Source of the DNA: a virus
Taxonomy: Duplodnaviria; Caudoviricetes
Length of the DNA: 64,000 nucleotides
Reading direction: 5' to 3' (one strand)
IMG/VR virus record: IMGVR_UViG_3300028887_000114
Coordinates: 6,588-70,587 of that record
Part shown: in pieces, positions 13,721-60,257 of the stretch
Position numbering within the stretch: the stretch's first letter is position 1
How the letters are laid out: each line of letters opens with the position of its first letter
Notes under the pieces: model-generated
What the model was told of the DNA's origin: nothing
The model's input: the letters and a program-made list of their open reading frames with translations, nothing else
The model's database searches: none
Program-made: the position numbers and the translations under genes

Positions 13721-14143
13721 TTAAAAGTTATTTAAAAATGCATGCATTATCGCACCTTTTTGATAAATCGCATTACACTCTTCATAAACTGCTTTTTTAC
13801 TCTTTAATTTCTTAAAAGTGTCTTCAGTCATTGGATTTGGGTCTTCTGATTCCCAACCTAAATTCCAAGATTCCTGAAGGTCTTTTTTATTAGATTCGAA
13901 ATCTTTACAGTAACGTTCAATAACGATTTCGCCAATATCTTTACCAGTTGCATTTAATTCTTTTTCAGAAAGCATGGTATTGATAGTACCAATTTTTACA
14001 GTGTTTTGATAATAACCTCTACTCTGTGTAAAAGAAAGGAACTGATCTGCAGTTGAAAAATGCAGGTCAGCCTCATTTAACATAGGAGATTTTACGTTGT
14101 AATGATTTTCTTTTAAGATTTGTAAAGCTTCTTTTAAGTTCAT
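13721..14143 (-). CDS. late protein with shared N-terminal leader (putative internal head protein)
   Basis: Starts MNLKEALQILKENHYNVKSPMLNE. Confidence 0.7.
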   Translation of the reverse strand: MNLKEALQILKENHYNVKSPMLNEADLHFSTADQFLSFTQSRGYYQNTVKIGTINTMLSEKELNATGKDIGEIVIERYCKDFESNKKDLQESWNLGWESEDPNPMTEDTFKKLKSKKAVYEECNAIYQKGAIMHAFLNNF

Positions 14144-14161
14144 AGATGTATTCTTTAAATA

Positions 14162-14800
14162 TTAGAGTTCTTCGTTAATTCGATCAGCAGCGTCTTGTGG
14201 TGAAATAAGTCCTTGATTATAAAGCTCAGATGCAATTTGCTGTGCTCTTTGTAAATCATCATCATCAATCATACCGCCATCTTCTTGTGCAAGAGATAAT
14301 GCTTTTGCAATATAGTCTTGTTCTGCATTTGGGACAATTTCTTCAAGTTCTGCATCATCGACCATCGGTGCAAATTCTTCTTCATTGAAATAAAGTTCAA
14401 CCTTGTGTCCTGGTTTCTTCTTTTCTTCAACATAACCAAGTTCTTTAAGAACTTCAGACCATTGCGTATTTCTATATTTTCTAAGAGAAGACTTTACGAA
14501 TGCAATTTCTCTAGGAGTCAAAACTTGACCAGCTTGAACTTTCTTAGCTAATGGAGTAAGATATGCAGCGTCAGTCTGGTTAAATCCTCTAAAGTTACGT
14601 AAAACTGTTCTACCAGAACGTTTTTCAAAGTCTACTTGACGACCAAACATACCGACAAGAAGAATAATAACAAATTTATCATTTTCCAAATATTCTTTAA
14701 TTCTCTGGTTAAGCTGGTAATTTGACGTATAAACCTCTTCGTTCATAACCTTATAACCATGTGCTTGAACCACTTTAATAGCTTCTGCAATTTTCTTCAT
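14162..14800 (-). CDS. late protein with shared N-terminal leader (putative internal head protein)
   Basis: Starts MKKIAEAIKVVQAHGYKVMNE; late promoter at 14821-14828. Confidence 0.7.
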   Translation of the reverse strand: MKKIAEAIKVVQAHGYKVMNEEVYTSNYQLNQRIKEYLENDKFVIILLVGMFGRQVDFEKRSGRTVLRNFRGFNQTDAAYLTPLAKKVQAGQVLTPREIAFVKSSLRKYRNTQWSEVLKELGYVEEKKKPGHKVELYFNEEEFAPMVDDAELEEIVPNAEQDYIAKALSLAQEDGGMIDDDDLQRAQQIASELYNQGLISPQDAADRINEEL

Positions 14801-14820
14801 GATTTAAATCTCCTTACTAT

Positions 14821-14859
14821 TATTTATAGCAATCTGATTCTTTTTAACGATTATAAATA
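14821..14859. promoter_or_regulatory. divergent pair of T4-type late promoters
   Basis: TATTTATA at 14821-14828 (minus strand) and TATAAATA at 14852-14859 (plus strand) between divergent genes. Confidence 0.75.
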
Positions 14860-14881
14860 ATATTAGAAAGGAATTTAAGCT

Positions 14882-17824
14882 ATGATTGTAAAAAATGGTC
14901 AAATAATTGCAATAGGTAACGTAAATACTGGCGGCACATTATCTGGTAATGGCTTAGCAGAAAGCCCATTAGGATTGAGAGATGATGCGGTCAAACTTAC
15001 ACCTGCTTCATCAGGTATTGACATTAAAAAAATCGTCGCCGAAGATGGTAAAATAGAATATCAGCTTGGTGTCAGTGCAAATATTACGGTTGGAAGCACA
15101 AAAGTTGAAGGCGACAAAGGAATCAAATCAGAATTACAACCAGACGGTGTTACTTATATCGTTTCTGTTTCTGGTGATTATTTGACCTCTGCTGATAATT
15201 CATTGGCAGGTAAAGATTTAATATTACGTGATAATCAATGGGTAGAATTATCTGCAGCACCAGAAACCAAAGAATATAGCGGTGGCGAAGGAATTAAGGT
15301 TGAAAACCATATAATTTCTGTTTCTAGTGAATATTATCCATTAAATACAAATCCTAGCGGTTATTTAGTAAAATCTGACCTTAACGAGTATGCAAAATCT
15401 GCTTGGGTTGACCGAGAATTTCAGAAGAAAGGTAATTATATTACTTCTGCTGGTATTGCAGGAGAATATTTAGTTTTAAAAGATAATACTTGGGTATTGA
15501 TGCCAAATCCTGGTGCTGTTTATAGTGCTGGTCCTTTTATTAAGATTACTGATGATAATAAAATTTCTGGTTATGATTGGAATCCAATAATTGACCAAAA
15601 ATTATTTACAAGCTCTTTCAATACATATAATTCTGCATATAGTGCATATATTGAAAATCAATTCAGTAGTTTCTCTGCAACTGTTTCTTCTACATATATT
15701 CAAAGTGCAGATGTTCCAAAATATAGTGCTGGTAATTTTATTAAAGTAAAACCGGTTGGTGAAAATTTTGAAATTATTGGTCATGATTGGACTGACAAGA
15801 TTGCAGAAAAATTATACACTAGTTCTTTTGAATCTTATAGTGCAGCATATAGTGCATATATTGAAAATCAATTCAGTAGTTTCTCTTCTACAATTTCTTC
15901 CACATATATTCAGAGTGCAGATATTCCAGTTTATAGTGCAAGAAATGATTATATTAAGGTAATTACAGATGGAGATAATTATGGTCTTTCTGGTTACGAT
16001 TGGTCAGATGAAATTGCTAAGAAAATAGATGTTACTGCATCAGCAGGTTGGGATGTAACGTCATATAGTGCTGGCGATTTTATTAAGATTGTTGACCATA
16101 AGATTTCTGGTTATGATTGGACTGATGAAATTGCTAAGAAGCAAGATGAATTAACAGAATATCAGCTTTCTGCTATCAGTTCTGTTAGTGGAAAACAGGA
16201 CATGTTGAGTAATGAACAATTATCAGCAATCAGTTCTGTTAGTGCAATTCAAGCATTCTCTGGAAATTGGGTTACTTCTGCAACAGAAACAATTTCTGCT
16301 GAAAATCTTTCTTATGTTTTGAAAAAAGACGGTAATAGTTCTAAATGGGAAGGTGTTGATTTATCAGAAGTTGGTAAGACATATAAAGTTGAATCTGAAA
16401 CTCCAGAATTACTTAAAGTAACTTCTGGCGACGGTAATACTACATTTACTTTAAGTGCTAAACCATATCCAGAAGTACCAGAAATTCCAGGTATTAGTGG
16501 TTATGGAACTTCTGCTTGGTATGATGAACCAAATAACCAATATAAAGTTAGTGCAAATATTGTTGGTATAAATGGTATTTCTGCAGAATACGATTCTGTA
16601 AATAATCAATGGAATATTGGTGCATCAGCAAGTAATCTTGCTTATTTAAATACATCATTTGAAAAAACTAATGCTGAAACAGTTACATCTGGAACAGTTA
16701 TTAAATTTACTAATGGCGTTCATCATGATATTACAGTAGATAATGATGGTTATATTACAGTTCCAAATACAGTCGATAAAATGACAGTATGTATGAATGC
16801 TACTATTGATAATAATATACCAGATGGAAATCCACATAATTATATGTTGAATCAATTTGTTCTTTCAGCAGTTAATGGTAATGCACTTGTTACAACACAT
16901 GATTATTATCCATCTGAAGTTGGCGCAGCTGATTCTAATATTGCTGCTACAATTCAACATTATCCTGGAACTAAATATTGTGTAGTTTATCTTGGAAGTG
17001 ATGCACTTCAGCAATCTAATCTTAATGTTCATCTTACTATGATTGAAGAAGTTATTAGTATGTCTGATAATTCTGGATTAGGTATTGAATATGCAGGTAT
17101 TGCGCCAATTACAGTAAATAATCAAGTTCATAAAATCGGTTTAAATTATGATGAAGAATTATTTACATTAAATGAAAATAATCAATTATCACTTGCACAA
17201 AAATCGGGTGACGTTGTTGAACCAGTTGATGCAAAGCTTTTTAATAAGCTTCTTAATTCAGTTAATCAGAGAATTGTTGAAACAATACCTATTGGTATGG
17301 TAAGTTCTACGAAAGATCAGAGTATTGATAATTCTAAATCTTATTTATTTAGACCAATGATTGAATTTGATATGCTTAGCACAACTACAGCACGTATTCT
17401 TACAAGTAATTGCTCAGCTGGCACATCAAGTGTAATGGTCGCAGTTTATGAAGTAGATGAAAACACTGCATTACTTACACCAATGTGGTGGTCAGTAAAT
17501 ACTGTACTTACAAAAACTCAAGGACAACATGTCTTATCTTGTCATCCAGATTGTACTGAAACAAGAGCACTTAAACCAGAAAAATTATATTATGTTGAAA
17601 TAATAGTTCATGGTCAAACAACACATTTCCTTGGAATTGATAATGCATTTAGAACCGATATTGGTGCATTTGATATTGCGTATGGTAGACAAAATGTAAC
17701 AAGTTCTTATAGTAATTGGAATCCAGCAAAGTTCAATAATCAACCTGCAGGCAGTCTTGGTGATACTGCATTAGCAGATTTTAAACCATATGTTGGATTT
17801 AGAAACGATCCTGTAAATAATTAG
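14882..17824 (+). CDS. tail fibre protein with internal repeats, 980 aa
   Basis: Repeated 'YSAGxFIKI...ISGYDW' units, S/T/G-rich, late promoter. Confidence 0.7.
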   Translation: MIVKNGQIIAIGNVNTGGTLSGNGLAESPLGLRDDAVKLTPASSGIDIKKIVAEDGKIEYQLGVSANITVGSTKVEGDKGIKSELQPDGVTYIVSVSGDYLTSADNSLAGKDLILRDNQWVELSAAPETKEYSGGEGIKVENHIISVSSEYYPLNTNPSGYLVKSDLNEYAKSAWVDREFQKKGNYITSAGIAGEYLVLKDNTWVLMPNPGAVYSAGPFIKITDDNKISGYDWNPIIDQKLFTSSFNTYNSAYSAYIENQFSSFSATVSSTYIQSADVPKYSAGNFIKVKPVGENFEIIGHDWTDKIAEKLYTSSFESYSAAYSAYIENQFSSFSSTISSTYIQSADIPVYSARNDYIKVITDGDNYGLSGYDWSDEIAKKIDVTASAGWDVTSYSAGDFIKIVDHKISGYDWTDEIAKKQDELTEYQLSAISSVSGKQDMLSNEQLSAISSVSAIQAFSGNWVTSATETISAENLSYVLKKDGNSSKWEGVDLSEVGKTYKVESETPELLKVTSGDGNTTFTLSAKPYPEVPEIPGISGYGTSAWYDEPNNQYKVSANIVGINGISAEYDSVNNQWNIGASASNLAYLNTSFEKTNAETVTSGTVIKFTNGVHHDITVDNDGYITVPNTVDKMTVCMNATIDNNIPDGNPHNYMLNQFVLSAVNGNALVTTHDYYPSEVGAADSNIAATIQHYPGTKYCVVYLGSDALQQSNLNVHLTMIEEVISMSDNSGLGIEYAGIAPITVNNQVHKIGLNYDEELFTLNENNQLSLAQKSGDVVEPVDAKLFNKLLNSVNQRIVETIPIGMVSSTKDQSIDNSKSYLFRPMIEFDMLSTTTARILTSNCSAGTSSVMVAVYEVDENTALLTPMWWSVNTVLTKTQGQHVLSCHPDCTETRALKPEKLYYVEIIVHGQTTHFLGIDNAFRTDIGAFDIAYGRQNVTSSYSNWNPAKFNNQPAGSLGDTALADFKPYVGFRNDPVNN
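15635..15886 (+). repeat. 210-bp-period intragenic duplication
   Basis: Identical 42-mer GCATATAGTGCATATATTGAAAATCAATTCAGTAGTTTCTCT at 15635-15676 and 15845-15886. Confidence 0.9.
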
Positions 17825-17835
17825 GAGTTTAAATA

Positions 17836-22653: not shown

Positions 22654-23085
22654 TTAGCCGACATTGAATTCGACCGGACGAGCTTCAGGGCAGACCGGAA
22701 TGTTGATGGTCAAGAGACCATTTTCAACCTTAGCGGTAAGTTCCTTCATGCTGAGGTTAGCCGGAACGAAGATCTTAATAGAGAGCTTGCCGCTACCCTT
22801 GATCTTGCGAAGTGTGTAAACACGCTTTGCTTCTGCTTCCTTTTCAGCATCGGTGACTTCCTTCTCAACAGTTTCGATGGTGAGATATGCCTTACCATCT
22901 TCAATGGTGCCCTTAAGCTTAATGTCTTCACGGGTCTTACCAACGACTGCGACTTCGATTGTGCTCGAACCATCTTCTTCATGAATGATGTTGAGCGGGA
23001 CGTTTACCTTTTCAACAGCGCCGCCAAACGAAGCGTCAAATGCATTGAGTTCAGTGAGAAGTTTTTCAAAAATATTCTTATCCAT
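22654..23085 (-). CDS. hsp20: small heat shock protein (Hsp20/alpha-crystallin)
   Basis: 'PLNIIHEEDGSSTIEVAVVGKTREDIKL' and 'LTAKVENGLLTINIP'. Confidence 0.9.
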   Translation of the reverse strand: MDKNIFEKLLTELNAFDASFGGAVEKVNVPLNIIHEEDGSSTIEVAVVGKTREDIKLKGTIEDGKAYLTIETVEKEVTDAEKEAEAKRVYTLRKIKGSGKLSIKIFVPANLSMKELTAKVENGLLTINIPVCPEARPVEFNVG

Positions 23086-27956: not shown

Positions 27957-28024
27957 AAAATTCTCCAAAATATTTTTACAAAATATAATAAAATATATTA
28001 ATATCGTCAACCTATAAATATTAT

Positions 28025-28144
28025 ATGAATTTAGATGAAGCAATTAATTTATTAAAAGAAAAAACCAGGAATAAATCCTGGTTTTATTTTTACTCACCAA
28101 CAGGTGTATCAGACAGCAAAGTAATACCACCTTGTGAGTTTTGA
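28025..28144 (+). pseudogene. remnant of a leader-family gene (MNLDEAINLLKE...) cut by a terminator
   Basis: TATAAATA at 28013-28020, ATG at 28025; the first 12 codons match the family leader, then run into the terminator at 28061-28085. Confidence 0.5.
28061..28090. terminator. bidirectional terminator
   Basis: AAAACCAGGA-ataaa-TCCTGGTTTT. Confidence 0.85.
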
Positions 28145-43341: not shown

Positions 43342-43830
43342 TTATTTTTCGTTATTTTGCAAAATTTCCTCAAGCTTATGTAATACTTCTTTATATGTCG
43401 TATAAAGAATAGCATTGCTTCCAGCTTTTACGAAATCATCGCAATTTTCTGGTTTATCGTCGATTAATAAACGATTTGGTTTTGCATGTTCGACTTTATG
43501 GAAAGAACGGTCACAAATAATAACATTTTCCTGATTTATTTCAGGACAGTTACATTCTAGCCAATATCTTTTTCCTCTTTTACCAGAATTAAAATAAATT
43601 GCAGAAAGAATACCAAGCTTAAAATTATACTTTTTCTGTAATTCAAGCACACCGAGATAAAGATCATGTCCTTCTACCAGCCATGGCATATCAATCCAGA
43701 ACTTGGCACCGATTTTATGAATCTTATCCCAATTCGCTTTACCCGTCTGTTTTCGGGCGTTGTAAAAATCGACCTGATAATCCCAGTTCGTTAATACACC
43801 GTCCATATCTAAATAAATTTCATTAATCAT
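43342..43830 (-). CDS. HAD-family 5'(3')-deoxyribonucleotidase-like protein
   Basis: 'IYLDMDGVL', 'GKRYWL', 'LLIDDKPEN'. Confidence 0.85.
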   Translation of the reverse strand: MINEIYLDMDGVLTNWDYQVDFYNARKQTGKANWDKIHKIGAKFWIDMPWLVEGHDLYLGVLELQKKYNFKLGILSAIYFNSGKRGKRYWLECNCPEINQENVIICDRSFHKVEHAKPNRLLIDDKPENCDDFVKAGSNAILYTTYKEVLHKLEEILQNNEK

Positions 43831-44822
43831 AGTGTAGAAATGTTTAAAAGTTCAGAAATTGTTTCTTGTCCAGTTATTTTATGGAAGTTTTCTCTAGGCA
43901 TATCTACAGAAATGCTTACTTCCATTTTTGGCAAATCTATGTAAATGTCAGGAACGATGATATTGCCAACAGTATCACGTTTCTTAATTCCTTCAATATT
44001 ATAAATTGATGTTGATGGAACGTCAAACAAATGTAATACTCTTGCAGGATTAACTTGTTTAAGACCAAGAATATCAAAATTTATAATCTTGCACATACTA
44101 TGCAATGCTGGAATTTTCTTTTGTAACCATGAAATATTCTTTTCAATCGGTTTCTTATACTTTTCGAAAAGTTCTGCACCACGACCGGTATTTTTAAAAC
44201 CTTGAATCAAAACTCTTCTTCCTTGTAAAGCAGGCAGGTCATGCTTATTAAGAATTCCAGCAATTACATGTATAACGACTCTATCTCCAAGTTTATCAAT
44301 GAATTTAAAATCTTCCTTGCAATGTGCGTCATGCAATGTAATTCCAAGACCATAAATGAGCTGTTCATCGATTAATTTCTTAATAAGGTCTTTATTTTCC
44401 TTAATATGAACTTGATTAATATTAAGGTTAGTAATAATTCCTCTTGCCTTAAGAATTTCCAGAATAGTTATAAGCTGTGGATGTGCTAAAGGATTTCCAC
44501 CAGTAATATTAACTTCAAGACCAGGATAGAAAGAATTAATCATAGGCAACAGTTTTGACAAATCTGCATGTTTTGTTGCACTGTTACTTCCTTCTGAACA
44601 GAACTGACAACCTGCATTACAGAAATCTGTAATTTTTATAGTTATATTCTCTGGCATTTCATAAATGAAATTTTCAGAATCAGTTTCAACCCAACGGCTA
44701 ATTCTTTTGCCATCGTTTGCTGTTTCGCTAATATAGTAACCAGTTTCTTTGACTTTCGTACCATCAGTATAAATAGTGGTGCGATGATTGCCATTTATAT
44801 AACTACTTATAATATTATTCAT
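43827..44822 (-). CDS. radical SAM protein
   Basis: 'KITDFCNAGCQFCSE', 'ITGGNPL'. Confidence 0.85.
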   Translation of the reverse strand: MNNIISSYINGNHRTTIYTDGTKVKETGYYISETANDGKRISRWVETDSENFIYEMPENITIKITDFCNAGCQFCSEGSNSATKHADLSKLLPMINSFYPGLEVNITGGNPLAHPQLITILEILKARGIITNLNINQVHIKENKDLIKKLIDEQLIYGLGITLHDAHCKEDFKFIDKLGDRVVIHVIAGILNKHDLPALQGRRVLIQGFKNTGRGAELFEKYKKPIEKNISWLQKKIPALHSMCKIINFDILGLKQVNPARVLHLFDVPSTSIYNIEGIKKRDTVGNIIVPDIYIDLPKMEVSISVDMPRENFHKITGQETISELLNISTL

Positions 44823-44844: not shown

Positions 44845-44882
44845 AATATAGTAAAAATAATTTAATCTGTAAACTATAAATA
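44845..44882. promoter_or_regulatory. back-to-back early (minus) and late (plus) promoters
   Basis: TTTACA-17-TATATT at 44845-44873 (minus); TATAAATA at 44875-44882 (plus). Confidence 0.7.
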
Positions 44883-44912: not shown

Positions 44913-45560
44913 ATGATAGACTTTTTAAACGAATCATTATATTTGGGCGATGATGTTGAAGATTACGACAACAGAAATAAAGCCAAGGGTTCTGTTACAT
45001 TCCGTAGTTTCATTATGACAGAAGCTGCAGATGAAGCATATAACCAGAGAATTACAAATAAGATTTGCACAGAAATTCGTGATATTATGGGCGATATTTA
45101 TATTGCATCACCTTCTGGCACTCGTTCTGCAAATAAGATTAGACTTATTCGTAAAGGCGGTGGCGGTGCATATCAGTTCGAATTGAAGATTAATACTGAT
45201 GGAACTATCAGTGTAAATGATAATAGCCAAGCTAGAGGTTTCATTAAGACATTAAAGGATGGTTCTAAGAAATTTATCTTGTTAAATGCTAATGAATTCT
45301 ATAGAACAAGCAGAACGAATGATGCTGGTGTTAATGAACTTGTTGAATGGTTAACAGATAATTACGATAAGTATGAACCAGCAAATGCTGCAGCAAGAGA
45401 CAGAAGAAACGGTATTACAACCGCAGCACGCACGTCTGCCGCAATGCCAGCAAGAAGATCTTCAGGACCAAGACGCACGACTGAAATTTCAAGAAGACAT
45501 GGAATTACAAGCGTTGCTGATTTCTTGAGAAATGGCGGTAATATTAGAGATTTAATCTAA
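44913..45560 (+). CDS. late hypothetical protein with Arg-rich tail (candidate internal head protein)
   Basis: Starts MIDFLNE; late promoter. Confidence 0.7.
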   Translation: MIDFLNESLYLGDDVEDYDNRNKAKGSVTFRSFIMTEAADEAYNQRITNKICTEIRDIMGDIYIASPSGTRSANKIRLIRKGGGGAYQFELKINTDGTISVNDNSQARGFIKTLKDGSKKFILLNANEFYRTSRTNDAGVNELVEWLTDNYDKYEPANAAARDRRNGITTAARTSAAMPARRSSGPRRTTEISRRHGITSVADFLRNGGNIRDLI

Positions 45561-45577: not shown

Positions 45578-45617
45578 AAAAAACCAGTCAGTAATGGCTG
45601 GTTTTTTATTATAAATA
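45578..45617 (+). terminator. terminator followed directly by late promoter TATAAATA (45610-45617)
   Basis: AAAAACCAGTC-agtaat-GGCTGGTTTTTT. Confidence 0.75.
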
Positions 45618-45645: not shown

Positions 45646-47382
45646 ATGACTTTTAATGAAGCAAAACAGCTATTAAAATCAAGAAATGTATATTTTATCA
45701 AGGAAAGCGAAACATTTGGCACTTTGGAAGAATATAAGGCTAAATTAAGCGACTTGTGGGCAGATAACTATTCCAGCGATGATCCAGATGAAGCATCATT
45801 TGATGAAATGCTTGCAATCGATCCAGATGCAGAAGAATTGGTAAAAAGCTATTTTGAGAGAGATCTTGACCCTACTGAAGCGGTTGAAGAATTATATAAT
45901 ACATTGAATTCTACACCAGATAATACAGAAGATTATGGTGAAGTTTCTGAAGAAGATAATCTTGACGCATTAGATTTAGATGATAATGTTTCTTATGATG
46001 AAGCAGATTTAGAAAATTTCGATGAAGATAATTTTGATGCAACCAATTTTATTGAAAATGACCTTTCGCCAGAAGAAGAATTGAATTTTGACGAGGCAGT
46101 TAAGTATTTAAAGCAACATGGTTATACACTTAACGAAGATGCACAGTTACTTTTGGAAGATTGGTATGATAATATTGGATTAACCAATGAAGATAAGACA
46201 TTCGTTAAAAGAATAATTCAGGGCTTTGATTCATATAAAGTTAAGCCGAAGGTAATTAACGGCCATCGTATTAAAGGTGGTTACATGTTACCGAATACTC
46301 GTTCGTACTACTACCGTTCATTAGAGCGTGTTTTACAACTTGCACAAGAACATCATGCAAGTGGTCGTACTATAACATCTATTCAAAATAGATTAAACCT
46401 TATGACTGACCAGAACTGGTATCAGTTTATTAGAGAAAATAACCCAGATCTTGATCCAGATGATATTCCGCATCTTTTCGGTACTGCAGTAGCTGGTGAA
46501 GCTGATGATACTACTCCAGAAGAAGCTGCACAGCGAGCAGAAGAAGAACGTGCAGAAGAATTACGTCGTGAAGAAGCAGAACGTCGTGCTCGTGAAGAAG
46601 CAGAACGTGCTGAACGTGAACGTCAGCGTCGTGAAAATCCGGAACCAGAAGACTTGATTTCTGATGAAGAATTTGAAGAAACACCGGAAACAATTACGAC
46701 TCGCCCAGTTACTCGTCACCGCATGAGAACTGTTAACAGAAACTTTACTGACCATTATTCTTATCCGAAGAGTGTAATTAAGATTAATATCGATGTTACT
46801 GATGATGAAGAATCTAAGAATGACGTTGATGAAATTATTTCTGCAATCAAGGATAAGTTACGTATTGCATTCGAAGACGATGAAGGTAAGTTTGCAATGT
46901 GTAAAGTTGATGCAGCAGTTGTCGATGTTGAAGAAGACGGTCAAGCAAAGCAAGAATATCATGTTGTTATTAGCATGCCTGCAGAAATTAAGGCGGAAAT
47001 CAGCAGATTTGCTCAGCGTGAACTTGAAGACGCATTCCCGTTCGTTAACTCTGAACATCCAGAAGATTCTGTTTATGAATTCGATAATACTGGAAACCGT
47101 AATGAAATCGATGACGAAACTTACGAATATAATGAACCAGTTGTTCAGCCGGCACGTAGAAGACCACAAACAACAGTTACCCGTCGTGTTAACAGAATAC
47201 CACGCTGGAGAGTTTACTATAAGGTCGCTGATGAAAACGGTCGTCCGACAAATAGAATCAAAGCTGTTATTGTTCCTGCAGCAACTGAAGCTGATGCTAA
47301 AAACAAGGTTGAAAACCCAGAAGACATCGATAGCGCATACGCTACAAACGTCGCTCAGGTAATTAGAGCTGAAAGAATATAA
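45646..47382 (+). CDS. acidic late protein with two copies of the family leader motif
   Basis: ATG at 45646 (GAGAGG RBS); MTFNEAKQLLKSRNVYFIKE; internal LNFDEAVKYLKQHGYTLNE; E/R single alpha-helix stretch. Confidence 0.75.
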   Translation: MTFNEAKQLLKSRNVYFIKESETFGTLEEYKAKLSDLWADNYSSDDPDEASFDEMLAIDPDAEELVKSYFERDLDPTEAVEELYNTLNSTPDNTEDYGEVSEEDNLDALDLDDNVSYDEADLENFDEDNFDATNFIENDLSPEEELNFDEAVKYLKQHGYTLNEDAQLLLEDWYDNIGLTNEDKTFVKRIIQGFDSYKVKPKVINGHRIKGGYMLPNTRSYYYRSLERVLQLAQEHHASGRTITSIQNRLNLMTDQNWYQFIRENNPDLDPDDIPHLFGTAVAGEADDTTPEEAAQRAEEERAEELRREEAERRAREEAERAERERQRRENPEPEDLISDEEFEETPETITTRPVTRHRMRTVNRNFTDHYSYPKSVIKINIDVTDDEESKNDVDEIISAIKDKLRIAFEDDEGKFAMCKVDAAVVDVEEDGQAKQEYHVVISMPAEIKAEISRFAQRELEDAFPFVNSEHPEDSVYEFDNTGNRNEIDDETYEYNEPVVQPARRRPQTTVTRRVNRIPRWRVYYKVADENGRPTNRIKAVIVPAATEADAKNKVENPEDIDSAYATNVAQVIRAERI

Positions 47383-47433: not shown

Positions 47434-48756
47434 TTAATATGTTTTAGCAAATGCCATATAACCTAAGTAAGCGTTATAAATGTCATTTACATGTGCTAGT
47501 TCCAAAGGCGAATGCATATTCAGAATAGGAACACCAGCATCAAGAACATTAATATTCAGTTCACAAACCATGCTTGCGATTGTTCCGCCACCGCCAACAT
47601 CAACCTTGCCAAGACTATCAAACTGATACTTGATACCTGCATCCTTCATAATCCTTCTAACATAAGCGATAAATTCAGGATTTGCGTCAGCACCGCCAGA
47701 CTTACCACGACCTCCGTTATACTTGGAGAACATGATACCACCATTTAACTTAGCAGAAGACTTCTTATCATAAGCATCTGCATAAAGCGGGTCATAAGCT
47801 GCAGTAACATCAGAAGAAAGCATACCAGAACGTGCAAGAATTGTTGCAAATTCAACTTCATCCTTAGGTCTTGTCATACAACGCAATACATCTTCAAACC
47901 ATCTTGATTTTGCTCCTGTAGCGCAGCAAGAACCAATTTCTTCCTTATCTACTAATACAACACCTGCTGTAACATCTGGGGTCTCTGTGAGGTCCAGAAT
48001 GGCCATTAATGACGTATATGCACAAACTCTATCGTCTTGACCGTAACCAGCAACCAAAGATTTATCAAAACCAGAATATCTAGCTCTTCCAGCTGGGACA
48101 ATTTCAAGTTCAGAAGAAACTAAATCTTCTTCTTCAATATTATACTTTTCCTTAAGGAACTTCAAAACCCATTCCTTAACCTTCTTCTTATCTTTATCTT
48201 CAGTTTCAAGTTCTGTTGTTGCTACGAGAATATCAAGCTTTTCACCATTAATAAAGTCACTTGCCTTCTTTTCTGCAAGCTTTTTATCAAGATGCGGAAG
48301 AAGGTCACAAATACAGAAAATCGGGTCATCTGGATCTTCACCAATAGAAATATTAACTTTACCACCATCAATAAGACAAACAACGCCATGGATTGCAAGC
48401 GGAGTAGTTGTCCACTGATACTTTTTAATACCGCCATAATATTGCGTATCAAAATAAGCAATTCCATCGCTTTCATATAATGGCTTCTGTTTAACATCAA
48501 TTCTAGGTGCATCAATATGTGCGCCAAGAATATTTACTGCATTATTTGCTTTACCGACAATAAATGCAGCAAAATTTTTATTTTTATTTTTAAAATAAAA
48601 TTTATTGCCTGGTAATAAAATACCGTCGTCATGTTTATATGGTCTAAAACCTGCCTTAATTGCAAGTTTTTCGGCTTCATCAACGCAAATACGTTCAGTC
48701 TTTGCAGTGGAAATAAAATCAATATAATTTTTAATAAAAGTTTCTTGTGTAGTCAT
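47434..48756 (-). CDS. M18 family (aspartyl) aminopeptidase
   Basis: 'GAHIDAPR', 'YYGGIKKYQW', 'GQDDR', 'DKEEIGS', 'SSDV', 'MHSP'. Confidence 0.92.
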   Translation of the reverse strand: MTTQETFIKNYIDFISTAKTERICVDEAEKLAIKAGFRPYKHDDGILLPGNKFYFKNKNKNFAAFIVGKANNAVNILGAHIDAPRIDVKQKPLYESDGIAYFDTQYYGGIKKYQWTTTPLAIHGVVCLIDGGKVNISIGEDPDDPIFCICDLLPHLDKKLAEKKASDFINGEKLDILVATTELETEDKDKKKVKEWVLKFLKEKYNIEEEDLVSSELEIVPAGRARYSGFDKSLVAGYGQDDRVCAYTSLMAILDLTETPDVTAGVVLVDKEEIGSCCATGAKSRWFEDVLRCMTRPKDEVEFATILARSGMLSSDVTAAYDPLYADAYDKKSSAKLNGGIMFSKYNGGRGKSGGADANPEFIAYVRRIMKDAGIKYQFDSLGKVDVGGGGTIASMVCELNINVLDAGVPILNMHSPLELAHVNDIYNAYLGYMAFAKTY

Positions 48757-48822: not shown

Positions 48823-50067
48823 TTATGCGTTGTCCTTGAAGTCCTTAGCAAAGTTTTCAAACAATGCAGTAAGATGTTCTTCAGTCAAACCAAGCTTAAA
48901 TACTGGCTTATAAGTATCATAGAATTCCTGAAGCGTATGTGCATTAAATGGCTTATCGGTATCAGTCTTATAATGAGTATTCAAACGTGTCATTGCGGTT
49001 CTGCAGATATTGCTGACAACAGACGAACTTGGAGAACCAACTGCATCGCCGATAACACCACCGTTTCTGAAAATTCTTGGATTGTCGCTAAAGTATTTCT
49101 TGACAATTTCCTTAACTTTCAATGCATAACTAGAACCATTACGTAATGGAATTTGAATGGTTGTTGGAATTTCATTTTCGATGAGTGCAGTAACTTCTTC
49201 AGAAATGCGACGTGCGTCAGAGCTTAAGAATGCACGGCATTCTTCGACACTTGGCAATGTTTCCATTTGAGCATTATTTCTGAAAAAGTCAAGAACTGTT
49301 GTATTAACACTAGCCCAGTTTGTTTCGATATTGTTTGCTAACAATAGCTTTGCATTTTCTGGTTCTTCCTGAATGAACAATGCAAGCTTATATGCAAGTT
49401 CTTCAGACATCTTTGGCTTTTCTTCTGCAGAAAGATTTGGATTTCTAATAACGTGACACAAGTCAAACCACTGGTCAGCCAATGCATATTTAGAACTCTT
49501 ATATTCTTCTTGCGGCATAGTCCAACGAAGAATATCACGTTTGATGTTCTTATAAGTCTTGGCACCGAATCTATCCAAAGCTTCTTCTGGATTATGCTGG
49601 AACCAATCAATAAACTCAGCAAGGTTCAACTGGTCATAAGCGTCTTGTGCACTTGTATATTGCTTAGTGGTTTTATGACGGAATGCCATACCCTTATCAT
49701 AATAATTTCTATCAATATCGTCCTTATTACGTTCAACTGTTCTTTCAATTCTTGCGAAAAGCTTATGATATGAACTTGCGTTAAACTTACGAACAAGCTC
49801 ACTCCAAGAAATGCTACTTAAATCAATGTCGAGTCTATCATTGATTAAAGCAACATAGTTATCCCAATCAAAACTATTCTGAATAATATAGTTTTTCAAT
49901 GAAGCTTTTTGACGATCTGTTTGACCTTTATCAGCAATTAATTCATTAAGTGCCTTATCAGTAAGATAAAATTGTTTCTTTTCAGGTGAAAGTTTGTCGT
50001 AAATACGACGATATGCATTCTTTGCCATTTCAGTAATATATCTTCTTCTATTAGAGAACAAGCTCAT
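48823..50067 (-). CDS. late hypothetical protein (candidate internal head protein)
   Basis: Late promoter at 50095-50102; N-terminus MSLFSNRRRYITE. Confidence 0.7.
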   Translation of the reverse strand: MSLFSNRRRYITEMAKNAYRRIYDKLSPEKKQFYLTDKALNELIADKGQTDRQKASLKNYIIQNSFDWDNYVALINDRLDIDLSSISWSELVRKFNASSYHKLFARIERTVERNKDDIDRNYYDKGMAFRHKTTKQYTSAQDAYDQLNLAEFIDWFQHNPEEALDRFGAKTYKNIKRDILRWTMPQEEYKSSKYALADQWFDLCHVIRNPNLSAEEKPKMSEELAYKLALFIQEEPENAKLLLANNIETNWASVNTTVLDFFRNNAQMETLPSVEECRAFLSSDARRISEEVTALIENEIPTTIQIPLRNGSSYALKVKEIVKKYFSDNPRIFRNGGVIGDAVGSPSSSVVSNICRTAMTRLNTHYKTDTDKPFNAHTLQEFYDTYKPVFKLGLTEEHLTALFENFAKDFKDNA

Positions 50068-50153
50068 ATAATCTCCTTGTAATTTACTTTATATTATTTA
50101 TAATAAAAAATGAGAGAAATAATCCCTCATTTATTATAAAAAATACAGAAGTA

Positions 50154-54615: not shown

Positions 54616-54644
54616 ATAAATTCCTTATTTGTGTTGTTAAAAAA

Positions 54645-54747
54645 TCGCTATCGCGAAAAGTAGATATTGCCTAAAAAATTATTCATCTATAGGAACTTTC
54701 TTTGCGATAGCGAGATTAAATATAGTAAATTATTTTACTCTTGTAAA
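54645..54747 (-). promoter_or_regulatory. sigma70 promoter plus structured 5' UTR
   Basis: Promoter at 54719-54747; perfect 10-bp stem TCGCTATCGC (54645-54654) / GCGATAGCGA (54703-54712) starting at the predicted TSS. Confidence 0.65.
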
Positions 54748-54750
54748 CCC

Positions 54751-55866
54751 CTATTTAGAGATTATTTCCATTTCATAGAAATACTTTTGCATGATACCAA
54801 CTAGTTTTTCATACCAGATTTTTCCATCATTAATCCATTCTTCAAGATTTGGCATTTCCATGTTAATTAAGTCACCAACATTCTTCCATCTCAAACACTT
54901 CTTCATTCTGAACATGGTTTTAAGCTGGTTAATTATAATTTCATATCTTTCCCTTGTAAGATACTTCGTAATATCTTTACACATATCTTTAAAAATATCT
55001 TCAAGTTCTTTCTGATGTTCCTTATCGGTGCAGGCATTCATGTATAAAATACCATTCTTGGTAATAAGATGAATGTCACCGATGACAAAATAGCTTAATC
55101 CACGTTTTTCTCTAATTTCTTGACAGAACGGAGAATTTAAACCTTCGCAAAGCATTTGCATACCAATAAGTGCGAGTGGATATTCTGTCTTAATAACGGG
55201 ATGCTTACTAAAAACAAATACATTAACTTTTTCAGAATCTGTAACTGGGAGAATTTCTTGCTTTCTGTCTCTAAATTTTAAAGTAACAGGTTCTGGTAAA
55301 GTGTCTAAATATTCAATATTGCTAAAGTCTGTTTTATCCTTACCAACTTCAACAATTCTAAGGGGTTTCGTATACTGTTCTCTTGCGACCTGAAGCATAT
55401 CTGCATAAGTAAAAGCTTCAATATCTGCCGGAATACCGGTTGGGTCATGAACGCCGAAATAGTTATAAATTAAGTTTGTATAATGACCGTCATTTGGGTC
55501 TTCATAAGTATCGAGAAGTTCTTGCATAACGATTTTCTTTTCGTTTTCAAATTCCTTCTCTGTAATATTTACATAATCATTTAAAATTGCTCTGACCAGT
55601 TCTTGTTTAAAATCTGCGGATAATTTGTCTTCTAATCCCCTGAAGTAAACAACAACATAATTTTGTGAGGTTGAGGCATTGAAATCTATACAGTCATTTG
55701 TAAATCTGTCCATATATTTATCAACGCCTTTTGTAATCAAATGTTCCATTAGGTGTGATATTCCTCTACGACCTGGTTTTTCATATGCAGCGCCTGTAGG
55801 GAATACAATATTTAACGATGTTAGTCCAAGCTTACTCTTTTTGAATACATGTCCTGCTTTTATCAT
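54751..55866 (-). CDS. M16 (insulinase-like) zinc peptidase
   Basis: Inverted zinc motif 'GISHLMEH'; 'FNAST'; 'QEIREKRGLSY'. Confidence 0.9.
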   Translation of the reverse strand: MIKAGHVFKKSKLGLTSLNIVFPTGAAYEKPGRRGISHLMEHLITKGVDKYMDRFTNDCIDFNASTSQNYVVVYFRGLEDKLSADFKQELVRAILNDYVNITEKEFENEKKIVMQELLDTYEDPNDGHYTNLIYNYFGVHDPTGIPADIEAFTYADMLQVAREQYTKPLRIVEVGKDKTDFSNIEYLDTLPEPVTLKFRDRKQEILPVTDSEKVNVFVFSKHPVIKTEYPLALIGMQMLCEGLNSPFCQEIREKRGLSYFVIGDIHLITKNGILYMNACTDKEHQKELEDIFKDMCKDITKYLTRERYEIIINQLKTMFRMKKCLRWKNVGDLINMEMPNLEEWINDGKIWYEKLVGIMQKYFYEMEIISK

Positions 55867-56221
55867 TCCTTTCCTTTAATTTACTCTTTAATTCATTCTC
55901 GCGGGCAGGATCGTAATGTTCACCGAGCAATGATTTTCTCAATTCATCGACTGACATATTGTCTGAATTTTTGACAAGACTTCTCAAAAAGTCTAAATCA
56001 AAATTAATGGCATTACTATAATATGCCATATTCTTATTATATCCAGGCTTTCCTGGTCCACACTTAAATGCTTCGTTAACCCAATAGAATGAAGGTTTCT
56101 GATCGTCATAAATCTTAAATAACAGATCGTCAGAATAATACCTACGAAGAAACATATCGTAAGCATCCAGCTCTTCCGTATGTGCTGGGTAATCCTTCTT
56201 TAATCTTTCAATAATATACAT
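55832..56221 (-). CDS. hypothetical protein
   Basis: 129-aa ORF in operon. Confidence 0.6.
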   Translation of the reverse strand: MYIIERLKKDYPAHTEELDAYDMFLRRYYSDDLLFKIYDDQKPSFYWVNEAFKCGPGKPGYNKNMAYYSNAINFDLDFLRSLVKNSDNMSVDELRKSLLGEHYDPARENELKSKLKERNDKSRTCIQKE

Positions 56222-56226
56222 ATTAA

Positions 56227-56823
56227 TTAAAAGTGTGTAATGTGGTCTCTATTGTGATAATCTTTAATTTCCTTGGTCTCGGTATCATATACGAGAAGGT
56301 CAAGGTTATAAAATTTAAAACCGTTACTGTTGATTACATCGTATGCAGAAATTCCCTTGTTACCAGTTAAATAATGATAGATATATCTAGTAACCATACC
56401 GTGACTGATATTTACGATATTATTAATATTTGGGAATGCATCATGTAATGTATCAAAAAACTTGAATACCAAATCAATTTGCTTTTCCATATCTTCTGGC
56501 TTTAAAGGAACAATCTTTTCAAATTCTTCCTTTGTAATTTCCCAGAATTTCAAGTTATTCAATTCGCTACAATCAAATTCGTTCAATTCATTTAAAGTCA
56601 TCATCGGCGGCATTTTAAACAACAATTCTGCCGTTTGCTGACATCTCTTTGCTGGAGAAGAAACAATAGGAGTATTAATATCAATCTTCGGCAAGTATTG
56701 ACCAATATCTTCCTGCCAATGTTCTGGCATAGTTCCAGCAATAGGTTCCTGACTGTAATCCTGAACCATAGCTCCAGTCAAGTTAGGTGCAGTCGGTGCA
56801 TGTCTTAAAAAATATAGTTTCAT
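56227..56823 (-). CDS. histidine phosphatase family protein
   Basis: 'LYFLRHA', 'SSPAKRCQQTAE', 'LNE', 'ISHG'. Confidence 0.85.
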   Translation of the reverse strand: MKLYFLRHAPTAPNLTGAMVQDYSQEPIAGTMPEHWQEDIGQYLPKIDINTPIVSSPAKRCQQTAELLFKMPPMMTLNELNEFDCSELNNLKFWEITKEEFEKIVPLKPEDMEKQIDLVFKFFDTLHDAFPNINNIVNISHGMVTRYIYHYLTGNKGISAYDVINSNGFKFYNLDLLVYDTETKEIKDYHNRDHITHF

Positions 56824-56825
56824 TA

Positions 56826-57194
56826 TTAAATCCTATTATATTTTTCAATAAATTTAGCTTCGCACTTATGTAATCTAGGTGCAAAAACAACTTTTAAAAT
56901 AGCTTCTGGTTTTTCGGTTCGATAAATAACATCTTCAGTACATTTGAACGGATTTTTATCAACACCGTCAAAGTAAAGATAGTAATTATTTTCATCGAAG
57001 ACAAGCATTGCATTAATATATCCGGAGTTTTCATCCTGAATATAAAACTTATAACCCAAAACACCTTCTACCTGTGTCTTGCATAATGCTGTCATTTGAA
57101 TATCAAGACCTGATTTGAATTTTTCATACATTTCATTACATGTAGCATGAACAGTTAAAATGCAGAAGAGTAATGCAAGAATGATTTTCTTCAT
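56826..57194 (-). CDS. small secreted protein
   Basis: Start moved to MKKIILALLFCILTVHA (signal peptide). Confidence 0.65.
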   Translation of the reverse strand: MKKIILALLFCILTVHATCNEMYEKFKSGLDIQMTALCKTQVEGVLGYKFYIQDENSGYINAMLVFDENNYYLYFDGVDKNPFKCTEDVIYRTEKPEAILKVVFAPRLHKCEAKFIEKYNRI

Positions 57195-57202
57195 GGTATT
57201 AC

Positions 57203-57427
57203 CTACTTTGTATTGGCAATCATTGTCATGCAATTTGCCAGGTCCTCTATGTTAGAAATGCTATTGGCTATCAATTTATTGTTTTTGGTGTATATATTAA
57301 AACAGTTATTTTGCTGTTTTACAATAAACTGACGACCAGATTTAGCTAAAAATTTGAAATGATCTAAATGTCTTGCCTTAGTCTCATCCCAAATTCTACG
57401 AATTTCAATGATTTCTTTATCCAACAT
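57203..57427 (-). CDS. small hypothetical protein
   Basis: Promoter at 57446-57474; ATG at 57427 preferred. Confidence 0.55.
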   Translation of the reverse strand: MLDKEIIEIRRIWDETKARHLDHFKFLAKSGRQFIVKQQNNCFNIYTKNNKLIANSISNIEDLANCMTMIANTK

Positions 57428-57477
57428 ATACACCTTTTTTTACAAAATATAGTAAAGGTGCAATATATTGTAAATGC

Positions 57478-58218
57478 CTATTTCTTAAATATTTTTAGGA
57501 TCATATCAATTAATGACTCTAAAAGGCCTTTTTCTTTTTGTTTTTCTTCAATAATTTCTTCTTTTTCTTCTCTAACTTCTGGAACCTTTACTTCCATTAT
57601 TTCTTCCTTTGGTTCTTCTACTACAGTTTCTTCGGCTTCTTCGATGATTACGTTTTCAAGCTTTGGAGAAACTTTAATAATAAATTCCTGCCATTTAGAA
57701 ATATCACCAGTATCTTCATTCCAACCAATGACTCCTGGACATGGCTTACCATTAACATCATAATGTCTAATTATATGTTTTGAATCGATTTTATATTCTT
57801 CCATCAATTTCTTTGTAAGCTCTATGCAGTTAGCTATTACGGCTGGAGTAAAATACCAGTTTATATCGTTTGGAGAAGTGACTTTCTTTGTCAAGTTAGT
57901 AGAACACATTTCAATACCGATAGAATTAGCACTTGTGCATACTTTATATAATGAACCGCCTTTGGTTTTATACTTATTACCGCCGCAATGCCAACAGTAT
58001 CTATTCTTTATATCAGGATTATACTGGACTATATTTTCGTCATCAATAATGAAGTCTGCAGAAGCTTTTGTAGTTTCCTTAGCAAAATACTTAGCATTTG
58101 ATTTCGCAGTCCCAGGCTTGCTTGTAACGCCCGCTGTGTAGTGTATAACAATATACTTGATTTTTCTATTTTTCAATTCTGTTGTATTGGCAGTATTTGT
58201 GCATTCTATGATATTCAT
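57478..58218 (-). CDS. N-acetylmuramoyl-L-alanine amidase (Amidase_2) endolysin
   Basis: 'YIVIHYTAG', 'WHCGG', 'NSIGIEMC', 'IRHYDVNGKPCPG'; late promoter at 58223-58230. Confidence 0.92.
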   Translation of the reverse strand: MNIIECTNTANTTELKNRKIKYIVIHYTAGVTSKPGTAKSNAKYFAKETTKASADFIIDDENIVQYNPDIKNRYCWHCGGNKYKTKGGSLYKVCTSANSIGIEMCSTNLTKKVTSPNDINWYFTPAVIANCIELTKKLMEEYKIDSKHIIRHYDVNGKPCPGVIGWNEDTGDISKWQEFIIKVSPKLENVIIEEAEETVVEEPKEEIMEVKVPEVREEKEEIIEEKQKEKGLLESLIDMILKIFKK

Positions 58219-58234
58219 ACTATATTTATAAATG

Positions 58235-58263
58235 AAAAAACTGGAACTAAATTCCAGTTTTTT
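58235..58263 (-). terminator. intrinsic terminator
   Basis: AAAAAACTGGAA-ctaaa-TTCCAGTTTTTT. Confidence 0.75.
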
Positions 58264-58281
58264 TCTTTGTACATGCTATAA

Positions 58282-58749
58282 TTATTTACGGTTTAACTTT
58301 GCCTTTGCAGCATTAATTGCACGAGAACCAAGTGCATTATGTAATTCATCAAAACTCAAACCATTAAAATCAGCATTTAAGTCAAATGGTTCACCTGGAT
58401 TATTTTGTTTGTATGCTAAATATTCATCAGTTGCTGCAATAAACATAGCTTTTAATTCTATAATATCATTAGGATCTTCGTTACCGCTTAACCAACCACA
58501 ATCATCTATTGCAATTCTAATTATACCAGGTAAAAATCTGTCTTGACCTTTTTCTCTCCAATAGAAATGAGAAAATTCATGACGTGCTTGTTCAATAAGC
58601 TCGTTAGCAGAAGAACAGCCAGTACGAGTTAATGCGTCTGAAAATTCGATCCATTGTTTTGCTTTTCTAACACCATCAGAATTAGCATCTTCTTTAAGCA
58701 GTGTATAACCTTTATTTCTAAGAATTTGTTTAGCTTCTTGTAAATTCAT
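58282..58749 (-). CDS. late protein with shared N-terminal leader
   Basis: Starts MNLQEAKQILRNKGYTLLKE. Confidence 0.75.
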   Translation of the reverse strand: MNLQEAKQILRNKGYTLLKEDANSDGVRKAKQWIEFSDALTRTGCSSANELIEQARHEFSHFYWREKGQDRFLPGIIRIAIDDCGWLSGNEDPNDIIELKAMFIAATDEYLAYKQNNPGEPFDLNADFNGLSFDELHNALGSRAINAAKAKLNRK

Positions 58750-58762
58750 TTTATCTCCTATA

Positions 58763-58834
58763 TTTTATAATATTTATAATAAAAACTTTTATAATATTTA
58801 TAATAAAAACTTTTATAATATTTATAATAAAAAC
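58763..58834 (-). repeat. three exact tandem 24-bp repeats, each carrying a late promoter
   Basis: (TTTTATAATATTTATAATAAAAAC)x3; TATTTATA at 58771, 58795 and 58819. Confidence 0.9.
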
Positions 58835-58857
58835 CGGATAAAAATATCCGGTTTTTT
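58829..58857 (-). terminator. intrinsic terminator
   Basis: AAAAACCGGATA-aaaa-TATCCGGTTTTTT. Confidence 0.8.
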
Positions 58858-58887
58858 GAATGCATTCACAAGTTCTAAGCTAAAGGA

Positions 58888-58950
58888 TTAGACCTTTCCG
58901 CCCTTTGCCCAAGGTGGTACATTCGCTTTTGTTTCTTTTGATTTTGCCAT
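58888..58950 (-). CDS. 20-aa basic late peptide MAKSKETKANVPPWAKGGKV (not in ORF track)
   Basis: GGAGG RBS 5 nt upstream, own late promoter at 58971-58978, downstream terminator. Confidence 0.7.
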   Translation of the reverse strand: MAKSKETKANVPPWAKGGKV

Positions 58951-58973
58951 TTTTTCCTCCATTATATTATTAT

Positions 58974-60257
58974 TTATAAGGCGTCTCTGATTAATTTATT
59001 GATTTTATCCTTATTGAAATTATGTTTGGTTATTTCAGGGTGTGTCTTAATAACTTGACATAATTTAAGAATTTCGTCGAAATATTTTTGTTGCTTAGCC
59101 TTTGGCAACTTATTAAATTGGTTACTAAAGAGCTTTGTAACAAGATTCTTAGCAATCTTAGATACACTGTTCTTAGAACGCTGGATAGCATCGATATAAT
59201 CTGGAAGTTTCTGGTGTAATTTTGCTTCATATTCAAGTTCGTCAGAAGCATAAGCACCTGAAGCCATTACTTGATGAGCATCATAGTCATGTGCATCTTC
59301 AGTTCCATCTAATTGCTTATTATTAGCCTGAATATAGTGAGTTAATTCATGATGAAGAACTTCCTGGAAGAAATCACCAAAATATTCTTCCATAATCTTA
59401 TCAACAACCTGCATTGGTGTTTCTGCATCAGCTTCAACTTCTTCTACAGCATCCTTGAACTTGAATGAATCGTCAACATAAGTATAGCTACTATAACCAT
59501 AATTACCACCGTAACCATATCCGCCATAGCCATAACTACCATAATAACCATTGCTGCTGGAACCATATCTATCACGGAAACGAGCATATAATGCATCACG
59601 TTCTGCGGTTCGACCAGTAGTCGGAGTTGCTGTCTTTTTCTTACCCTTGTTCTTTTCAAGGTTAGCTAAAATCCTATCAACTTGTTCTTGACCTTCTGAA
59701 GCTTTTTCTCTAGCTTTTGGGAATGGAATTGTATTGATTTTTCTACTTGTATACTTACCTTCTGTAATTTTCTTAGTTCCTTTTGTAGTAGAACCAGCGG
59801 TCTTAGTTGTAGCAGCAGAAATAACGTTTGGTAAGTTAATCATCAAAATGACTGGATCTGTATCTGGGTTTGTATCACCCATGGCGTTAGCATATAATGC
59901 ACCTTTTCCTCTACCTTTCTGTGCATCATAATCACTACGAATATCTTTTTTATCACCATAGAGTTTAACAGTCAATGCTTTCATTCTGACTGGTTCTGGA
60001 CGATAAGTAACAGGAACCATCAATGCTGGGATTTCGATTGTAATTGTCTTTTCTACATCTTCGCCATCATAAACCTTGTCAAGCATCTGTGTGAGCTTTT
60101 GTCTTAACAATTTCATGATACGTGCTTTATATTTTGTAACAAGTTCCTCTACGTCAAACGTTCTATTTTCTGTGACTAAACGATTTTCAGAAATGATATA
60201 ACCTGACTCTGTAAGAACCTTTAATGCCTTATATATTTCCAGTTCATTGAGCTTCAT
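58974..60257 (-). CDS. late protein with family leader, Gly/Tyr-rich linker and HExxH metallopeptidase-like motif
   Basis: MKLNELEIYKALKVLTESGYIISE; 'EVLHHELTHYIQ...ELEYEA'; late promoter at 60280-60287. Confidence 0.75.
   Translation of the reverse strand: MKLNELEIYKALKVLTESGYIISENRLVTENRTFDVEELVTKYKARIMKLLRQKLTQMLDKVYDGEDVEKTITIEIPALMVPVTYRPEPVRMKALTVKLYGDKKDIRSDYDAQKGRGKGALYANAMGDTNPDTDPVILMINLPNVISAATTKTAGSTTKGTKKITEGKYTSRKINTIPFPKAREKASEGQEQVDRILANLEKNKGKKKTATPTTGRTAERDALYARFRDRYGSSSNGYYGSYGYGGYGYGGNYGYSSYTYVDDSFKFKDAVEEVEADAETPMQVVDKIMEEYFGDFFQEVLHHELTHYIQANNKQLDGTEDAHDYDAHQVMASGAYASDELEYEAKLHQKLPDYIDAIQRSKNSVSKIAKNLVTKLFSNQFNKLPKAKQQKYFDEILKLCQVIKTHPEITKHNFNKDKINKLIRDAL

Follow-up and report, generated by a model that had tools for sequence, protein, structure and literature searches.

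The targeting of proteins to the phage head by a tag is a principle that has been known since the 1990s. Encapsulins likewise rely on cargo-loading peptides, short and transferable, that dock diverse cargo inside an HK97-fold shell. In phage T4, a capsid targeting sequence (CTS) is present on the proteins IPI, IPII, IPIII, and Alt; it and the short propeptide of gp24 are removed by the prohead protease gp21 (PMC3012670, PMC5694885). The internal proteins of T4 are Lys-rich and DNA-bound, and the portion of the same account that deals with the hypervariable internal-protein loci of T-even phages describes diverse open reading frames (ORFs) sharing only the CTS (PMC3012670). The phiKZ-like giant phages (SPN3US, phiKZ, and 201phi2-1) carry long N-terminal propeptides on head and ejection proteins that are cut at A/S/G-x-E by the prohead protease, and a phiKZ-like ejection protein has a transmembrane segment right after its propeptide (PMC5694885, PMC7411985). 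The present analysis concerns a window of 64,000 nucleotides, bases 6588-70587 of the 70,587-bp viral contig IMGVR_UViG_3300028887_000114, in which several proteins begin with a shared N-terminal leader of about 20 residues.

The leader belongs to a family whose reality is practically beyond doubt, and we consider it probable that it serves as a head-targeting propeptide of the T4-CTS type that is removed by a protease. The source of the window is an uncultured T4-related giant phage of which the contig is a fragment, 17% complete by CheckV. Neither megablast of the window nor tblastn of a 26-residue leader gave any match among 50,697 GenBank phage records, and no cultured relative is at hand. 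Close relatives are present in IMG/VR. One of them, designated G001, is a complete genome of 415,750 bp with terminal repeats, and further ones are fragments of 230 kb and 50 kb; the genome size of the leader-bearing clade is about 410-425 kb.

A family of leader-bearing genes

A preliminary description of the window had quoted five similar N-termini, and all five are found at the ORF starts 14143, 14800, 45646, 58749, and 60257. A profile built from them and scanned over the six frames of the 70.6-kb contig gave as its top matches these same five and one more N-terminus, the sixth, that lies upstream of the window (an ORF of 428 residues at contig 2517-3803), with scores of 20.5-36.2 bits against noise of at most 6.9 bits. 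Genes A (13721-14143, minus strand, 140 residues) and B (14162-14800, minus strand, 212 residues) form a B-A operon with A as its second gene. The leader of A spans residues 1-24 (14072-14143) and ends M-L-N-E, and that of B spans residues 1-21 (14738-14800) and ends V-M-N-E. Both score 31.0 bits, as does the leader of gene C (45646-47382, plus strand, 578 residues), which covers residues 1-20 (45646-45705) and is followed by an internal second copy (46081-46137, 11.0 bits). A similar internal copy in the upstream ORF scores 11.5 bits. The highest score, 36.2 bits, is that of gene D (58282-58749, minus strand, 155 residues), whose leader occupies residues 1-20 (58690-58749) and ends L-L-K-E; in relatives gene D encodes 312 residues with a second internal leader, and it has been shortened to 155 residues on this contig. 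Gene E (58974-60257, minus strand, 427 residues) carries a variant leader at residues 1-30 (60168-60257, 20.5 bits) that has an insert of five residues and ends I-S-E and V-T-E. In the IMG/VR relatives, protein D is 83% identical and protein E identical to the products of the window.

The payloads, that is, the proteins beyond the leader, had been called unrelated, and BLASTP agrees in finding no similarity between them apart from one weak relation of the upstream ORF to 45646-47382 (E 8e-8). The shorter variants that the preliminary description had added at 44913 and 50067 are present and are conserved in a relative. They score nothing with the leader profile, and for this reason they are not counted as family members. 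Both are candidate short propeptides: gene F (44913-45560, plus strand, 215 residues) has an N-terminus of seven residues ending L-N-E, and gene G (48823-50067, minus strand, 414 residues) one of 13 residues ending I-T-E.

The profile scan of the contig and its relatives recovered the family and extended it. In G001, at least 22 genes start with the leader, often in tandem arrays of three or four, and they are spread across about 270 kb; six good internal copies and two C-terminal ones are found in addition. A degenerate DNA pattern for the first 15 leader codons, run on IMG/VR, gave 77 matches in 60 stretches of about 45 contigs. Every one of them proved to be a true leader standing at an ORF start, and one contig has four leader genes within 4 kb. 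On a larger scale, a 57-sequence leader profile compared with 1.84 billion cluster representatives matched 403 protein clusters at the cut-off of E<=0.001. The copy is N-terminal (within the first three residues) in 134 of the 145 representatives examined, 36 of the 145 have two or more copies, and the median protein length in this global set is 128 residues. In the family as a whole, up to three copies are found in tandem. The motif is not described by Pfam or PHROGs, as searched with seven window and 27 G001 proteins.

Structure of the leader and its terminal site

The consensus of the leader reads M-N-L-x-E-A-K-x-I-L-x-x-x-G-Y, after which another two to five residues lead up to a Glu. The end has the form hydrophobic-x-E, which matches the gp21 cleavage consensus (L/I/V)-x-Glu. 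The leader is best read as an amphipathic helix of about 12 residues, then Gly-Tyr with a short strand, and then the hydrophobic-x-Glu site. An AlphaFold model of protein E shows a low-confidence helix at residues 3-17, a linker at 19-30, and a confident fold from residue 31, right after V-T-E. Similarly, in the model of a protein with two leaders, discussed below, a helix is placed at residues 3-12 with low to moderate confidence.

The position of the site is narrowly kept. Among 66 non-redundant leaders, 50 have a [LIVMF]-x-E that ends at residue 18-20, and of the other 16, 12 have the site at residues 21-28, as compared with 18.6% of other ORFs (P=1.5e-6). Taken over residues 18-28, the site is present in 62 of the 66 leaders against 25% of other ORFs, and it is wholly missing in only two. 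An independent global set gives the same picture, with the site ending at residue 18-20 in 121 of 132 leaders.

The payload boundary and the capsid maturation site

Comparison of orthologues places the start of the conserved payload at the same site. In 18 orthologues of gene B, the first 20 or so columns of the alignment are 48% conserved as against 76-87% in the next three blocks of 20 columns, and the leader is sometimes replaced or reduced to 10 residues. Likewise, among 20 orthologues of gene E the canonical and variant leader types are interchanged with the payload boundary kept. In the orthologues of both genes, the conserved payload nearly always starts directly after hydrophobic-x-Glu.

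A second line of evidence comes from the major capsid protein. T4 gp23 is cut after L-T-E at residue 65, as follows from the T4 sequence and from mature chains of 456 residues in the PDB versus a precursor of 521 residues. The gp23-like protein of G001 has L-T-E exactly 33 residues before a conserved V-R-R, the same distance as in T4 gp23. A G001 paralogue of 195 residues (66419-67006 of that genome) begins with a leader ending L-D-E and continues at once with a copy, 55% identical, of the N-arm that the mature capsid protein has (E 4e-13), which covers the first 25 or so residues of the mature capsid protein and gives way to an unrelated Cys-rich sequence. As judged from this alignment, the leader replaces the capsid propeptide at the homologous gp23 cleavage junction. 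Circumstantial evidence supports well a predicted cleavage directly after the leader Glu.

The 195-residue protein is a possible mimic of the capsid N-arm. In the window itself, an ORF of about 215 residues at 13039-13686 (plus strand) matches the C-terminal part of Pfam Gp23 (E 2.5e-7), and it and the ORF at 11894-12547 (plus strand) resemble mini-paralogues of the capsid protein.

Head machinery and a protein with two leaders

The presence of a gp21-like protease in the genome had been named as a point on which the proposal would turn. Of the six large leader-bearing relatives searched, five (G001 and G004-G007), among them every one that is at least 98% complete, encode a T4-type S77 prohead protease. 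In G001 it is encoded at 89806-90471, near a gp22-family scaffold gene (85068-86045) and a gp23-like major capsid protein gene (86133-87452), the latter two having been searched for, and found, in G001 only.

Leader genes are found close to the protease. In G001, the gene of a conserved protein with two leaders adjoins the S77 gene. Leader ORFs flank the protease gene in G004 and G007, and in G006 an ORF with two leaders lies about 3 kb from it. Relatives of the double-leader protein have differing modules inserted right after the second leader, and some have repeated linkers, each of which ends L-D-E. In its AlphaFold model the two leaders are not packed together, and a helical domain at the C-terminus, which is modelled with confidence, found nothing similar in BFVD at E<=0.001. 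Two homologues (P0110 and P0115) are named 'Methanobrevibacter sp.' in NCBI records of metagenome-assembled genomes, one of them on a contig of 417,694 bp; such a record is probably a mis-binned phage. The SLT and Amidase_2 genes of the phage point to a bacterial host.

Late-type promoters

The preliminary description had placed TATAAATA before each leader gene or its operon, which holds true: the element lies 28-38 nt before the starts, usually inside a longer shared box. It precedes the ORFs starting at 14800, 45646, 58749, 60257, 44913, and 50067 as well as the upstream ORF. The ORF at 14143 has no element of its own, and since its start lies only 18 nt past the stop of the ORF at 14800, it shares the operon and the box of the latter. 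The element of gene B (14821-14828, minus strand), 28 nt before the start, serves both B and A and is divergent from tail-fibre genes. Those of genes C, F, G, and E are at 45610-45617, 44875-44882, 50095-50102, and 60280-60287, respectively, and upstream of gene D are three tandem repeats of 24 bp (58771-58826, minus strand) with one element each.

The association extends to the complete genome. In G001, the element is found before 13 of 23 leader genes as compared with 99 of 672 genes overall (odds ratio 8.5, P=2e-6), the 99 themselves contrasting with 14 expected from shuffles, and most leader genes without an element of their own sit downstream in the same operons. The G001 genes for the capsid protein, the scaffold, the protease, and the tail fibre are also preceded by it. 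The promoter context may point to late-type expression of the leader genes along with the head genes.

A short ORF of 39 residues (28025-28144, plus strand) has the first 12 leader residues (13.4 bits) followed by a bidirectional terminator hairpin, with its element at 28013-28020, 12 nt upstream. With the late box kept, it looks like a decayed leader-gene cassette. The same spacing, with the element exactly 12 nt before the ATG (box, A-T-A-T, ATG), is found in 26 of 672 G001 genes and, in the window, at 28013-28027 and also at 58230, upstream of 57478-58218. It suggests leaderless or nearly leaderless late mRNAs. Six late genes of G001 (4909, 49504, 113218, 261013, 280523, and 379773) start with M-N-F-K-D/E-Y-hydrophobic, close to the tags of T4 IPI and IPII, where chance would give 2.2. 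Possibly these form a second propeptide class of the classic type, a signal too weak to claim.

Payloads

Searches of Pfam and PHROGs with the seven window and 27 G001 proteins returned only SLT, the T4 scaffold family, S77, and one PHROG of unknown function, phrog_21015, which matches the payload of gene B. The sole Pfam domain on a payload is the SLT lytic transglycosylase, which occurs with a hydrophobic segment, a combination typical of ejected virion proteins and reminiscent of those described for giant phages (PMC5694885). In the payload of protein E, a disordered linker rich in Gly and Tyr joins an alpha/beta domain to a conserved HExxH domain. All of 24 homologues keep H-E-L-T-H and, downstream of it, E-x-E-A-x-L-H. 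The protein matches Pfam SprT-like weakly (E 0.09). Foldseek of its AlphaFold model against the PDB gave nothing at E<=0.001, and the best rows of VIA-align were zincin or YbeY-like at Z 3.8-4.3, with no convincing fold match. The domain of gene D is also found at the head of two G001 proteins of about 900 residues that carry a variant leader.

That each payload is an anti-defence or host-takeover protein, as had been proposed, is a conjecture. No payload matches a known anti-defence family in Pfam or PHROGs, PADLOC not having been searched. It is doubtful at best that most payloads are injected effectors.

Two neighbouring genes of the window may be mentioned here. Between genes C and G lies a gene (47434-48756, minus strand) for a Peptidase_M18 protein of the aspartyl aminopeptidase family (E 2.6e-88). 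Many of the predicted mature N-termini start with Asp or Glu, and this peptidase could therefore trim them. An Hsp20/alpha-crystallin family protein (E 2e-6) is encoded at 22654-23085 (minus strand).

Proposed mode of action and alternatives

By analogy with T4, the helix and Gly-Tyr part of the leader would allow a late protein, once synthesised, to dock on the prohead's scaffolding core, around which the shell would close. The S77 (gp21-type) prohead protease would then cut after the Glu, freeing the mature payload inside the head. Some payloads, for example the membrane-anchored lytic transglycosylase and perhaps the HExxH protein, would exit with the DNA at infection, and others may have a part in the core or in assembly. 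Where a protein has more than one leader, the cuts would divide it into modules. All these steps, from docking through cleavage and packaging to ejection, we infer from the T4 model. The modular CTS-type tag of the preliminary description, with its cut after hydrophobic-x-Glu, draws support from the head machinery, the payload boundary, the alignment with the capsid site, and the late-type promoters. The internal and C-terminal copies do not fit a simple signal of this kind.

Several observations weigh against a cleaved head-targeting propeptide. The motif is found internally, in tandem, and at two C-termini, copies which had been missed in the preliminary description; a C-terminal copy cannot be a removable N-terminal signal, and the simple model of a cleavable signal does not fit such copies. 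Internal copies also end hydrophobic-x-Glu, which is consistent with fused cassettes or cleavable polyproteins. The Glu itself belongs to the conserved motif, and its enrichment alone is thus no proof of cleavage. In one relative, protein B has an N-terminus of only 10 residues, so the long leader is dispensable for this payload; the neighbouring genes keep the long leader, so the leader type is not simply genome-specific. The leader profile scores below 0 bits on T4 IPI, IPII, IPIII, Alt, gp24, gp67, and gp68. Homology to the T4 CTS is rejected, and the likeness is one of format only. There is no protease gene on the 70-kb contig of the window, owing to the contig being a 17% fragment. A T4 gp55 query found no late sigma factor homologue in three complete or near-complete relatives, and the label of late promoter hence rests on the association with structural genes. 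Finally, acidity prevails among the predicted mature payloads (20 of 29; median isoelectric point 4.9 versus 5.7 for the genome), so that many may be core or assembly proteins and not injected effectors.

This last point leads to the alternative that survives best. The tag would direct proteins to the prohead core, with most payloads being core, scaffold, or assembly parts lost by degradation or expulsion as the head matures, in the manner of T4 gp22, gp67, and gp68; we regard this as possible, although not likely. Most of the predicted mature payloads are acidic and rich in low-complexity acidic stretches, like T4 gp67, the gene of the best conserved member lies next to those for the protease and the scaffold, and the absence of known anti-defence families from the Pfam and PHROGs results is in keeping with such a role. 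On the other hand, more than 20 payloads per genome, and the 403 clusters, are far above what a scaffold would require. Among the payloads are the SLT transglycosylase, which has a membrane segment, and the conserved HExxH protein. Payloads also diverge faster than their surroundings, being 53-84% identical to G001 as compared with 89-95% for neighbouring enzymes.

An extension of the propeptide reading goes in the opposite direction. The leader could be self-associating, with cargo leaders pairing with the leader-like repeats of the protease-adjacent core protein, which would allow the programmable loading of more than 20 proteins per head, including protease-jointed polyproteins, and effectors of new kinds, injected to counter defences or to take over the host, would make up a substantial share of the fast-evolving and mostly acidic payloads. 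In this full form we think it unlikely.

The motif might instead be a small interaction or oligomerisation module (helix, Gly-Tyr, strand) that is not cleaved and acts independently of position, for example by self-pairing, with no necessary link to the head protease. The internal, tandem, and C-terminal copies would be explained in this way, and so would the conservation of about 15 residues upstream of the site, which is beyond the need of a protease site. The overwhelmingly N-terminal placement among the cluster representatives, the retention of hydrophobic-x-Glu at variable spacing, the onset of payload conservation right after the Glu, and the coincidence of the leader end with the capsid maturation site all speak against it, and the internal copies likewise end hydrophobic-x-Glu. 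We accordingly rate it as improbable, and the head-targeting propeptide is retained as the preferred explanation.

Conservation could also act at the nucleic-acid level, through a shared element in the 5' coding region that acts in translation initiation or in the control of mRNA, or through a patch of homology for cassette recombination. The AT-rich leader codons do stand right behind a strongly conserved promoter and ribosome-binding site, and the internal-protein genes of T-even phages are thought to shuffle via their common 5' ends. However, the near-invariant Gly of the leader is encoded by four codons, and Leu, Ala, and Tyr by two or three each. The mean identity between leaders is 63% for nucleotides and 49% for amino acids, with identical codons at only 61% of the identical residues. 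As synonymous codons vary at conserved residues, selection on the leader, to judge by its codons, acts at the protein level. Substitutions are conservative (I/L/V/F), and the internal copies are remote from any start codon. On the codon variation we reject an element at the nucleotide level, which is very improbable. Hardly credible either is the idea that the leader is a tag by which a dedicated enzyme recognises or modifies the protein, for example the radical-SAM protein whose gene lies beside genes F and C (43827-44822, divergently adjoining 44913/45646). With the two radical-SAM proteins of the window as tblastn queries, 560 kb of sequence surrounding 60 leader loci of other contigs yielded no homologue, on which ground the linkage is rejected, and G001 has only one syntenic copy, its leader genes being widely dispersed.

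Comparison with known head-targeting systems

If the tag works as in T4, sequence alone would mark the capsid-carried proteins of an uncultured phage clade with genomes of about 400 kb. If this is true, it would yield a list of putative first-wave proteins (22 or more per genome, about 400 clusters overall), comprising cell-wall enzymes, the HExxH protein, and unknowns. Beside the T4 CTS that is used in phage engineering, the leader would offer a second natural packaging signal, longer than the first and with its docking part and cut site both defined. The gain lies in breadth and detail and not in a new concept.

The closest described system is the T4 CTS, which is likewise an N-terminal tag on otherwise unrelated proteins that ends hydrophobic-x-Glu. 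The leader-bearing genomes share with T4 an S77 protease and, as found in G001, a gp22-type scaffold and a gp23-type capsid protein, and their leader genes stand behind TATAAATA boxes. At about 20 residues, the leader is within the 10-20 quoted for T4 propeptides. It is, however, twice the length of the 10-residue tag of IPII and IPIII and has an extra conserved Gly-Tyr-strand element. There are at least 22 tagged genes per genome here versus about four or five in T4, leader copies are also internal, tandem, and C-terminal, the payloads are mostly acidic in contrast to the basic, DNA-associated internal proteins of T4, and the function is a predicted one. The hypervariable internal-protein loci of T-even phages resemble the tandem arrays described here in being made up of small, fast-diverging genes with only the leader in common; the arrays here are dispersed genome-wide.

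The phiKZ-like phages resemble the present clade as giant phages that load many head proteins via propeptides removed by a protease, and in having paralogues with identical N-termini. They differ in lineage and in their propeptides, most of which exceed 100 residues and which have a small-x-Glu site, and a gp22-type scaffold is not confirmed there. The encapsulin peptides, unlike the leader, are C-terminal and uncleaved and bind the shell protein directly with no protease step. The leader is most likely a longer version of the T4 capsid tag, of which the principle is known while this tag and its scale are new.

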